Source: Escherichia phage vB_EcoM_G2540-3. Taken from it: a DNA stretch of 64,000 bases. The notes under the pieces were generated by a model, which saw nothing but the letters and a program-made list of their open reading frames with translations, searched no databases and was not told the DNA's origin. This document shows, piece by piece, positions 2,014 to 45,718 of the stretch (the stretch's first letter is position 1; each line of letters opens with the position of its first letter). The position numbers and the translations under genes are program-made. The stretch lies in sequence record MK327944.1, one strand, 5' to 3'.

Positions 2014-2607
2014 TTATTTCAGAGAATTAATGTATTCCTGAACATCGGCAGAGGTAGTTTCAACCCCAGAAATATTACCGTTAAAGGTTTCAACTCGAGC
2101 AAGGGTATCTTCAATATCAACCTTAGTCAGTGCTGCAATTTCAACTACATCATCAGCAGTACTAATTCCAAGGGCATTTGCTGCACGAGTTTCACGGATA
2201 TATTCCAATTTAACCGCAAGTTCTTGACGAGCATCATCTAACTCAACTACTTTCTTGGCGATTTCAATTCGCATTTCAGCATAACCGTCAGCCTTAGTAG
2301 TCAACTGCTCAGCTGTTCGACGATATAGTAAACCGAGTTTAGCATGCATTGTTACATCTTGGCCTTCGGAAAGAAGTTTACGAATTTCACGCTCTTTTGA
2401 TTCGGCCTGTCGATTCTTTTCGATAACAAGTTCACGAATACGTTTTTCTTCGTTAATAGATTTAACAGAAGCAGTTTTTAGATCTTTAATTTTATCAAGT
2501 AGTTTTGCTGCTGCAGCAGTATACTGTTCTTCGACAGATAGATTTTTAGCCATAGCAGAACCAAGTTTAGTGCGAATAAACTCAACAATTTTCTTCAGTG
2601 TGTTCAT
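2014..2607 (-). CDS. coiled-coil protein, possibly PspA/IM30-like
   Basis: 197-aa ORF, highly charged with heptad periodicity; family assignment is pattern impression only. Confidence 0.5.
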
Positions 2608-2708
2608 AGTATTTCCTTAGGTTAATTGAGATTTAAAATCCGTAGGAGTATAATACTCTATCGTCAAATTATAGGCTCATAATATCTCAATCATGAGCCT
2701 ATGTAAAC

Positions 2709-2984
2709 TTATTTCATATTATTGAAATATTCTTCTGCGATTTCGTCGTTATCATGGTAAACTTTAGAAGACAGTTTAACATAACTTTCAGCAGTGAACA
2801 TGTTAATCACAACCTTTACAGTATACCACTGACCGTCTTCATTGCCCATTACCGCATAAGTTTCAAACATCGGATGATCAGGACCGATAACTTTAATATC
2901 ATTCACTGTACGACCGAAATCTTCTGAAACACATTTCATAAAGAAGTTGAACAGTTCGCCGTAATTATCCATTTCATTCTCCAA
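2709..2984 (-). CDS. hypothetical protein
   Basis: 91-aa ORF downstream of an early-promoter-like element. Confidence 0.55.
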   Translation of the reverse strand: MENEMDNYGELFNFFMKCVSEDFGRTVNDIKVIGPDHPMFETYAVMGNEDGQWYTVKVVINMFTAESYVKLSSKVYHDNDEIAEEYFNNMK

Positions 2985-3009
2985 GTTGTTTTCTGTATCA
3001 GTAGTTGAT

Positions 3010-3050
3010 AGTTGTATAGTACCATGGAAGAACGGGGATGTAAACCGTTT
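3010..3050 (-). promoter_or_regulatory. candidate sigma70-type early promoter (GTTTAC -35, A/T-rich UP element, TACTAT -10)
   Basis: Minus-strand GTTTAC at 3040-3045 with AAAAAATTTTTTCACAAAAC upstream; same family as IP-locus promoters. Confidence 0.4.
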
Positions 3051-3179
3051 TGTGAAAAAATTTTTTAAAAAGTTTTAGGGAATTCTAGGGCAGGGAGGGG
3101 CAATTAAAAGATAGGATAATATATTATAAAGGGTATAAACTAAATGATGTCTAGAGAGGCCCGGAAAGGCCTAGATACC

Positions 3180-3206
3180 AAAAAGCCCCAACCTTTCGGT
3201 CGGGGC
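3180..3206 (-). terminator. rho-independent terminator ending the tRNA/stable-RNA transcription unit
   Basis: Minus-strand hairpin GCCCCGACCGAAAGGTTGGGGC followed by UUUUU. Confidence 0.55.
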
Positions 3207-3522
3207 TAAGCCTTGCGGCAACCTTGTCGGGGTTCCACCTGCTAAGGCAAGTGTTTGTACGAAACGCCGGGATCGAACCCGGTTATTAAGTAGTTGACGC
3301 TACTCAATATTTTTAAAAGGCCATATCTCGACCATATCCGAACGTTCCGTCAAAAACGCTACTCGGCTTACGGCAAAGATATTTCCTCGAATCGATAATT
3401 CGGTGCGCCGTTTCTGCTGTGATATAAGGGGACATTAACAAAACATAAAGATTTATTAATGCCAGTCCTTAAACAGGGAACATCAGTCCGACGACTTACC
3501 GGTAGCGACCCGGTTTCTTGTC
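3207..3522 (-). ncRNA. candidate small stable RNAs (T4 species 1/2, rnaC/rnaD-like), including a tRNA-like element around 3259-3349
   Basis: No ORF; lies between tRNA-Arg and terminator as in T4; T-arm-like ACCGGGTTCGATCCCGG with acceptor-like pairing CGGAACG/CGTTTCG. Confidence 0.35.
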
Positions 3523-42921: not shown

Positions 42922-42940
42922 AAGGGGCCGAAGCCCCTGA
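42922..42940 (-). terminator. hairpin (UUCG loop on the minus transcript) after hoc
   Basis: Minus-strand GGGGCTTCGGCCCC followed by a T-rich tract. Confidence 0.5.
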
Positions 42941-42942
42941 GA

Positions 42943-44361
42943 TTATGGATAGGTATAAATGATACCAGTTTCTAAAGCAGTTTTATGAATGATGTATCCA
43001 TTGCGCGATTCTTGAACATCAACTTCTGGATAGTCTTTCATCATCTTCTGAAGAGTGTAACGATGCAGGTAGTATTTACTATCTGGATCTTCAGTTTTCC
43101 AATCTTTACCTTCTTCAGTCATTTTTTGGATTTCATCCATAACCCACCAACCGCACCAGATATAAGCTGAGCTACGATGTGGAAGAGGATGAACATAAGG
43201 TAATTCACCTTCTGGTTCCGGAGCAACTTTATCAGTCACTTGAACTTGACCTGTGGCTTTAACTGTTTTACTATCATAGTCAGTTGCTGTAACGACAGCA
43301 GTAACTTCAATAGTTTGACTTCCAATAGATGAGGTATCAACAGTATATACGTTAGTTGACCCTTCCACAGGAGAAGAATCTTTCTTCCATGAGTAAGTAA
43401 TTTGTGCTGCTTCAGGTGCGCCATTAACATTAGCAGTAAATGTAGCCGAAGCATCTTGCTGAACATTAATAGAAGGAGGAGTCAATGTAACCTGTGGATT
43501 CATTGTCTTCTTATTAACTGTCAATGATACTTCATTGGAAGTAACTTCCTTTTCATTATAATTTTCTGCAGTTACTTGGGCTACGCATTTAATTCTTTTT
43601 ACTCCACTTGTAGTTGGAGTATAGTTAAATGTAGAGTTAGTTTCTCCACCAACTTGTGAATCATCTACATACCACTGATACGTAGCAGACGCTCCGTCAG
43701 GTTGAGAAGCTAATGCAGCAGTAAATTGAACCGGGGTTCCAATTACTCCAGCAGCAGGACTAGCAGGAGTTACTGCCAAGGTAGTTGTCTGTGTCTTTTT
43801 ATTAACTGTCAATGATACTTCATTGGAAGTAACGCTCAGTGCATCATAATCTGTCGCAGTTACTTGAGCTACACACTTAATTTTTTTAACTCCGCTTGTA
43901 GTAGGAGTATAATTGAATGTAGCAGAAGTTGCTTCGCTCACAGGAGAACCGTCAACGTACCATTGATACGTAGCAGATGCGCCCGATGGCTGTGAAGCTA
44001 AGGCAGCAGTAAATTCAACGGCTGTTCCGATTACTCCTTCTGGAGGACTATTAGGAGTTACAGCTAAAGTAGTTGTCTGTGTTTTATTTTGAACTGTAAT
44101 AGTTGTACTAATTTCAGCTGTTTCAGCTTCAGAATCAGGAATAGTATTTGTTGCAACTACCTTAATAGTCTTTTGACCAGCAGGTCCTTTTAATACATAA
44201 TCAAAAGTTGCTGCTGATCCTTCTTGGGGAGCATTATCTACGCTCCAAGCATAGGTAATAGTTCCACCTCCAGTTTCACCACTGGGTGTAGCAGTAAACT
44301 GCTTGGTTTCATCAATAACCCCTGTTGGTGTTTTAGGAGTTATATCAACTGTAAAAGCCAT
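42943..44361 (-). CDS. hoc: highly immunogenic outer capsid protein Hoc with four Ig-like domains (one duplicated)
   Basis: 472 aa; N-terminus MAFTVDITPKTPTGVIDETKQF; two consecutive 96-aa Ig-like units about 88% identical; conserved C-terminal capsid-binding region. Confidence 0.85.
   Translation of the reverse strand: MAFTVDITPKTPTGVIDETKQFTATPSGETGGGTITYAWSVDNAPQEGSAATFDYVLKGPAGQKTIKVVATNTIPDSEAETAEISTTITVQNKTQTTTLAVTPNSPPEGVIGTAVEFTAALASQPSGASATYQWYVDGSPVSEATSATFNYTPTTSGVKKIKCVAQVTATDYDALSVTSNEVSLTVNKKTQTTTLAVTPASPAAGVIGTPVQFTAALASQPDGASATYQWYVDDSQVGGETNSTFNYTPTTSGVKRIKCVAQVTAENYNEKEVTSNEVSLTVNKKTMNPQVTLTPPSINVQQDASATFTANVNGAPEAAQITYSWKKDSSPVEGSTNVYTVDTSSIGSQTIEVTAVVTATDYDSKTVKATGQVQVTDKVAPEPEGELPYVHPLPHRSSAYIWCGWWVMDEIQKMTEEGKDWKTEDPDSKYYLHRYTLQKMMKDYPEVDVQESRNGYIIHKTALETGIIYTYP
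43501..43788 (-). repeat. hoc Ig-like domain unit, copy B (288 bp)
   Basis: DNA period of 288 bp (e.g. ttattaactgtcaatgatacttcattggaagtaac at 43511 and 43799); in-frame. Confidence 0.8.
43789..44076 (-). repeat. hoc Ig-like domain unit, copy A (288 bp)
   Basis: Tandem partner of 43501-43788. Confidence 0.8.
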
Positions 44362-45100: not shown

Positions 45101-45718
45101 ATGTACCACTTTGTATATGAAACAACAAATCTAATAAATGGTAAAAAGTATATAGGAAAACACTCTACTGATGACTTGAATGATGGTTACCTTGGTTCCG
45201 GTAAGGCAATTCAGCAGGCTATAAAGAAATATGGTGAAAACAATTTCTCTAGAACAATACTAAAAGAGTTTAAAACTTCCGAAGAAGCGTACATGTATGA
45301 AGAAGAAATTATAACTCCTGAAATAATAAAAAGCAAAAATTATTATAATATGAAACCTGGCGGAATTGGTGGAATTGTTATGACTACAGAGGTTATAGCA
45401 AAGATGAAAGAATCTTCCGCTAAGAGATTTGAAAACTCACCGGGCACGGTATTAGGTACAACTTGTTACACTAATGGAACTAAAAATATTTTTATTAAGC
45501 CTGGAGAACTTGTTCCAGAAGGATTTGTAAAAGGGATGGTTCATCCTAATAGAAAGTCCAGAAAAGGATGTAAAGTCAAACCGACTACCACAGGAACTTT
45601 TTGGGTCAATAATGGTGCAATAAATAAATTAATACAACCAGACGGTATTATTCCCGACGGATTTATTAAAGGTCGTCTCATGAAAAGAGATTCTAAAGGC
45701 AAATTTAGTAAGGCATAA
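45101..45718 (+). CDS. segE: GIY-YIG homing endonuclease
   Basis: MYHFVYETTNLINGKKYIGKHS...GYLGSGK is a GIY-YIG motif; 205 aa, upstream of uvsW as T4 segE. Confidence 0.8.
   Translation: MYHFVYETTNLINGKKYIGKHSTDDLNDGYLGSGKAIQQAIKKYGENNFSRTILKEFKTSEEAYMYEEEIITPEIIKSKNYYNMKPGGIGGIVMTTEVIAKMKESSAKRFENSPGTVLGTTCYTNGTKNIFIKPGELVPEGFVKGMVHPNRKSRKGCKVKPTTTGTFWVNNGAINKLIQPDGIIPDGFIKGRLMKRDSKGKFSKA

Follow-up and report, generated by a model that had tools for sequence, protein, structure and literature searches.

The hoc gene of Escherichia phage vB_EcoM_G2540-3 (MK327944.1) encodes a Hoc protein with four Ig-like domains rather than the three found in T4 Hoc, and the additional domain is one of two in-frame, head-to-tail copies of domain 2 which we refer to as units A and B (Table 1; positions are those of the window, by which we mean the whole stretch of 64,000 nucleotides that was analysed). 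The window gene is very probably an example of the common two-unit A–B allele, produced by an old in-frame duplication of domain 2 whose units have since been shuffled by unequal recombination. In T4, each gp23* hexamer carries a single central Hoc monomer, with 155 per capsid, and the protein is dispensable for growth; it has become a model for phage mucus adherence, is a major phage antigen, and is widely used as a display scaffold.

Table 1. The hoc gene of the window, the parts of the protein it encodes, and the adjoining terminator-like sequence.
Feature	Position	Strand	Basis and comments
hoc	42943..44361	-	472 aa / 1419 bp; from the ORF list; phmmer match to PDB T4 Hoc 5vf3_Z with E = 9e-218
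Ig-like domain 1 (D1), aa 1–95	44077..44361	-	Alignment with T4 Hoc residues 1–103; AF2 beta-sandwich 1–91
Domain-2 unit A, aa 96–191, extra compared with T4	43789..44076	-	Repeat detection; AF2 domain 99–187 with pLDDT >90
Domain-2 unit B, aa 192–287, counterpart of T4 domain 2	43501..43788	-	Aligns with T4 Hoc 93–191 with 5 substitutions
Ig-like domain 3 (D3, T4 numbering), aa 288–380	43222..43500	-	Pfam, phmmer and AF2
Linker and C-terminal capsid-binding domain (aa 381–472) plus stop codon	42943..43221	-	Near-identity to T4 Hoc 285–376
NEVSLT motif copy 1, aa 180–185, unit A	43807..43824	-	Sequence
NEVSLT motif copy 2, aa 276–281, unit B	43519..43536	-	Sequence
Terminator-like hairpin (AGGGGCTTCGGCCCCT and then a run of Ts), 4 nt past the hoc stop	42923..42938	-	Intrinsic-terminator-like

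The identity of the gene is clear from its sequence and position. The protein begins with a series of Ig-like (PKD / I-set) domains and ends in a capsid-binding domain homologous to T4 residues ~281–376, and the gene has inh on one side and 24.3/24.2/rnlB on the other, as in the late region of T4, with the order rnlB–24.2–24.3–hoc–inh–segE–uvsW being that of T4 (the annotation of phage G2133 was also used for this comparison). T4 Hoc (376 aa; PDB 5vf3, 8t1x) is the product of the same gene at the same locus. The initial annotation had set the 472 aa of the window protein against about 376 aa for T4 Hoc, and this difference was borne out as the T4 sequence (5vf3_Z; NC_000866 hoc, 1131 bp) aligns with the window protein from end to end minus one unit: residues 1–103 and 189–472 of the query are aligned, leaving one additional 96-aa unit, and in the phmmer alignment residues 189–472 match T4 residues 93–376 with the C-terminal 90 residues nearly identical. 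At the nucleotide level, domains 1 and 3 are ~86–87% and the capsid-binding domain 96% identical to those of T4, and T4 domain 2 shares 91% identity with unit B but 80% with unit A, so that the extra domain of the window protein is unit A, located between D1 and the T4-like D2.

A terminator is annotated at the same place after hoc in G2133, fPS-90 and ATK47 as the terminator-like hairpin we found in the window. The T4 late-promoter sequence (TATAAATA) was absent from the minus-strand DNA immediately before hoc and before inh, and the number of sigma-70-like promoter matches was at chance level. We also note an ORF for a GIY-YIG homing endonuclease of 205 aa (45101..45718, plus strand) between inh and uvsW, which is the segE position of T4 and T6; T2 has no segE between these two genes.

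The duplication proposed in the initial annotation, a 288-bp in-frame tandem repeat at 43501–44076 adding a fourth Ig-like domain to Hoc, was recovered by repeat finders, Pfam, AlphaFold2 (AF2) and Foldseek alike, and its coordinates are exact, being the sum of the two units in Table 1. Tandem Repeats Finder reported a period-288 array at 43504–44097 (2.1 copies, 79% matches, score 743), and a second repeat search returned two 288-nt copies with a spacing of 288 nt and 79% identity, which is far above chance expectation. The period of 288 bp corresponds to 96 aa, or one Ig domain. The units were however less similar in protein sequence than the ~88% originally given, with 75/96 residues (78%) and 225/288 nucleotides (78%) identical, and their longest exact in-register run is 35 nt and contains the NEVSLT motif. 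The 63/288 nucleotide differences are distributed 14/14/35 over codon positions 1/2/3 and leave the reading frame intact.

As any tandem repeat may be misassembled, an expanded repeat created by assembly or sequencing has to be weighed here, but we found nothing in its favour and its probability is close to nil. A collapsed or expanded repeat is excluded by the 63 differing sites, with their third-position bias and intact frame, by the presence of this architecture in hundreds of other, independent genomes, and by the recurrence of the 1419-bp gene in many independent isolates (G2133 at 99.5% identity, and PP01, NBG2, ECO4 and fPS-90 in RefSeq).

Both units are matched by PKD/Ig models, and Pfam matches in the protein include PKD, Ig_2, Ig_3 and I-set. 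An AF2 model built with a 40-sequence alignment (mean pLDDT 84.5) has four beta-sandwich domains at residues 1–91, 99–187, 194–283 and 290–376 with pLDDT values mostly of 85–96, and the best PDB matches found by Foldseek were also four-Ig strings, from Dscam1, Sidekick and ICAM-5 (E ~1e-13). The C-terminal domain was poorly modelled (pLDDT 40–69), and because of this low confidence we relied instead on its identity to the solved T4 domain; it is invariant in the 40 aligned homologues.

A comparison of units A and B gave dN/dS values of 0.10–0.22 with dS at 0.7–1.3, which indicates purifying selection on both units. The amino acid differences between them cluster in two loops (unit residues 41–53 and 73–82), and in the second of these, which is TATDYDALSV in unit A (43831–43860) and TAENYNEKEV in unit B (43543–43572), dN exceeds dS (0.61 and 0.21, respectively) over ten codons only. 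On the basis of this short stretch of codons, the 73–82 loop may be under diversifying selection. It should be noted that this loop behaves as a cassette which is exchanged separately from the remainder of the unit, with T4 having an A-type loop in a B-type unit.

The four-Ig form is widely distributed amongst the relatives of the phage. The hoc DNA matches 678 phage records, of which vB_EcoM_G2133 was the closest among the matches listed (99.5%), and the window allele is identical to none of those listed. Estimating the shares of the different forms from an evenly spaced sample of the GenBank match ranking and from the lengths of protein clusters, we found that 19 of the 49 sampled full-length GenBank matches (~39%) were of ~1419 bp with four Ig domains and the remaining 30 were of ~1131 bp with three. 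The best 120 protein clusters were mainly of 376 aa (79 clusters), 472 aa (29) and 568 aa (7), with a few others off by 1–5 residues, and these three lengths are those of proteins with one, two and three domain-2 units. Four-Ig genes occur in several ICTV species (pp01, ec04, sf21, fps90, NBG2 and G28), and the four-Ig Hoc proteins of vB_EcoM_G2133, NBG2, PP01, ECO4, fPS-90, PYps47T and others share the 1419-bp architecture of the window gene at 88.9–99.5% nucleotide identity, differ from it by point differences only, and are labelled 'Hoc-like head decoration' in RefSeq. The four-Ig allele is already present in both GenBank and RefSeq. The initial annotation had allowed that this length might simply be normal for the lineage, and in this it was partly right: it is a common allele, but one which not all relatives carry. 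With about one third of the sequenced relatives having the same version, we regard it as an ordinary copy-number polymorphism.

Clustering of 160 individual units gave three types, although these unit-level clusters are blurred by mosaicism, with A nearly always first, B in a central position or as the sole unit, and C last. The arrays observed included A–B, which is the commonest two-unit form and that of the window, as well as A–C, B–C and A–B–C. The five-Ig Hoc proteins (568–570 aa; P0001–P0008 in our set, including those of Escherichia phages UGKSEcP1 and UGKSEcP2) have three units, typically in the order A–B–C. Many Hoc sequences (P0022, P0026, P0058 and others) are filed in the databases with assemblies of Escherichia coli or Shigella sonnei, with one named 'endonuclease'; these are probably from lytic-phage contigs within the bacterial assemblies, and the name is probably a mis-annotation.

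The relationship between units in different phages suggests that the A–B arrangement has been retained for some time. Of the two units in each of seven four-Ig genes, the first was without exception nearer to window unit A (84–100% nucleotide identity) and the second nearer to window unit B (91–100%). Within these genes dS between the two units was 0.67–1.19, whereas allele-to-allele comparisons gave medians of 0.32 in D1, 0.29 in D3 and 0.17 in the C-terminal domain. The duplication is therefore old, as the first and second units are orthologous by position in seven diverse phages and the inter-unit dS is high. The initial annotation had already argued from the divergence of the units that the duplication was not recent, and this conclusion stands on positional orthology and on the inter-unit dS of 0.7–1.3 relative to the flanks, but not on divergence alone; the latter gives no date for the array since units of both types occur as single-copy alleles too and undergo recombination. 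Pervasive mosaicism also makes unit trees unreliable and places a single origin of the A/B split beyond proof.

These single-copy alleles raise the alternative that A and B were old alleles of different phages which were joined by one unequal crossover during a mixed infection, in which case the 22% divergence between them would predate the two-unit gene and be uninformative about its age. T-even phages recombine very actively, and nearly pure single-copy A units (P0089, P0069, P0112, ATK47 and the IMG/VR locus L006) and B units (T4, RB3 and SF2-1) do exist. We nonetheless consider this unlikely, given that positional orthology is maintained in seven diverged four-Ig genes in which the flanks have diverged too (D1 to 83% nucleotide identity), that single-copy A units are always found with a B-type last codon (M, adjoining D3), and that many of them are one-switch A-to-B chimeras of the sort expected from deletion within an array. 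Such a joining would also still require a common origin for A and B, and with positional orthology and diverged flanks the A–B arrangement is old either way.

Evidence that hoc copy number is still changing comes from genes with a single unit. The three-Ig hoc of Shigella phage SF2-1 corresponds to the window gene without its unit A, the two differing at 7/1131 nucleotides, and its single D2 is 100% identical in nucleotide sequence to unit B; either loss of unit A by SF2-1 or its gain in the lineage of the window gene could explain this pair. Phage P922, whose D1 is 99.3% identical to that of the window, has a single unit which is A-type at the first ~45 informative sites and B-type at the remaining 17 with one switch between them, and a chimera of this kind is what unequal crossing-over of unit A with unit B would be expected to produce. 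The single unit of T6 similarly has an A-type N-terminal end and a B-type C-terminal end, the B-type domain 2 of T4 contains an A-type patch of 11 sites at the 73–82 loop, and the protein site patterns of the 79 single-unit clusters range from pure A or pure B to chimeras with one switch and more finely divided mosaics.

In T6 (MH550421, ~106708–107839; positions 2209..3340 of our extracted locus L001, minus strand) hoc is unannotated and frameshifted into ORFs of 161 aa and 241 aa with a span of 1132 bp, and in T2 (AP018813, 105597–106580; L002, 5598..6581, minus strand) it is annotated as three short 'head outer capsid protein' fragments. T2 hoc appears to be disrupted, and T2 heads reportedly lack Hoc, with which the fragments agree. 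The Mosigvirus ATK47 (NC_055708; L035, 301..1431) has a Tequatrovirus-type hoc with a single A-type unit and 86.6% nucleotide identity to the window gene, and another Mosigvirus, RB69, matches the window hoc in the C-terminal domain only; the comparison of ATK47 with RB69 suggests that hoc has been transferred between genera.

The SF2-1 gene, which differs from the window gene in the absence of unit A plus a handful of substitutions, the chimeric units of P922 and T6, the A-type patch in T4 domain 2, and the existence of five-Ig A–B–C genes could also be read as signs that a multi-unit array is the ancestral state of Tequatrovirus hoc and that the 376-aa form seen in T4 is a derived deletion. 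We regard this as a possibility of some weight, though one that we would not favour. More distant Hoc proteins bear on it directly: a scan of IMG/VR provided 21 loci, mostly distant, which we used as outgroups and kept out of the census described above, and the outgroup Hoc proteins are ~50% identical overall (~55% in D1, ~57% in D3 and ~84% in the C-terminal domain) with one middle domain or none, the middle domain being ~30% identical to A, B and C alike. As this domain is single or absent and equidistant from the three types, units A, B and C arose within the lineage of Tequatrovirus-type hoc genes, and this was not a recent event. A single middle domain may therefore be the ancestral condition, to the extent that such very divergent outgroup domains can be relied upon, and a duplication on the way to the Tequatrovirus-type hoc is required even if the array was ancestral within the genus. 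An ancestral array would change only which of the present forms is called derived, and is compatible with our main explanation of an old duplication followed by shuffling.

Two of the IMG/VR loci, from a more distant lineage of the Tevenvirinae, carry Hoc proteins (~50% identical to the window protein) which also have four Ig domains and 471–472 aa (L007, 1001–2410, and L008, 1001–2407), but in these the duplicate is an orthologue of domain 3 and not of domain 2. Their D3 and D4 are 58% and 78% identical, respectively, and their relatives in the set have 282 aa (two Ig domains) or 373–377 aa (three). This independent duplication of domain 3 indicates that Ig-domain duplication in Hoc is recurrent.

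The explanation we prefer for the window gene can be set out as a series of steps. The middle Ig-like domain (domain 2) would have been tandemly duplicated in frame within the Tequatrovirus-type hoc lineage, with the duplication junction in a short linker. The junction sequences support an origin in this linker, as unit A ends ...AAGACACAG|ACAACTAC, D1 ends ...AAAACACAG|ACAACTAC, and unit B ends ...AAGACAATG|AATCCA where it runs into D3, with the D1 and D2 ends sharing ...ACAGTT.AA.AA.A.ACA. Divergence of the units would then have given rise to types A, B and C, and unequal homologous recombination between units together with exchange among co-infecting phages would keep on adding, deleting and shuffling them, so that genes today hold from one to three units (376, 472 and 568 aa). 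Domain-sized in-frame copies, copy-number variants and single-switch chimeras, all of which we observed, are features of a recombination-maintained tandem domain duplication. In the virion, the unchanged C-terminal domain would be expected from its near-identity to that of T4 Hoc to bind the gp23 hexamer centre in the same manner, and the fibre would be longer by about one Ig module (~4–5 nm) than the 18 nm of T4 (180 Å is given in PMC10385173), shifting domain 1 outward and presenting the domain-2 surface, including NEVSLT, twice.

Variation in the number of Hoc domains has been noted before. Fokine et al. 2023 (PMC10385173) and Fu et al. 2024 (PMC11853027) give Ig-like domain counts of 1 to 10 for Hoc homologues and describe a variant without domain 3. 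Our literature search returned general statements on varying domain number, and the Tequatrovirus domain-2 A/B/C array and the deletion chimeras were not described in what it covered, although an earlier account is possible.

According to PMC11853027, residues S183/L184/T185 in domain 2 of the phage PNJ-9 Hoc, a variant with three domains, are required for binding MUC2-fucose, and another site is dominant in the four-domain Hoc of PNJ-6. These residues correspond by number to the last three of the NEVSLT motif (N180-E181-V182-S183-L184-T185 in unit A), which is found in both units of the window protein. The extra unit may alter the length of the fibre or its binding to mucin, the first of which, along with binding in general, had been suggested in the initial annotation. 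A doubled binding site or higher avidity is speculative, however, because PNJ-9 Hoc has three domains and NEVSLT is not key in PNJ-6.

As genome biology, our findings are an unsurprising case of domain copy-number variation through recombination, and a variable number of Ig domains in Hoc homologues has already been published. A bolder reading, which we think doubtful, is that the domain-2 array is a recombination-driven contingency locus in which copy number is adaptive rather than subject to neutral drift. If this were true, gain, loss and shuffling of the one to three A/B/C cassettes, whose differences lie mostly in two loops at the surface, one of them with dN greater than dS, would be rapid enough to adjust the length of the fibre, its avidity or specificity for glycans, or its escape from anti-Hoc antibodies among different gut or mucosal niches. 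About one third of the sampled hoc-matching records have four Ig domains and at least two named phages have five, with the extra modules being copies of domain 2, and this bears on the choice of therapeutic phages, on the reading of T4-based adhesion and immunogenicity data, and on the engineering of display constructs.
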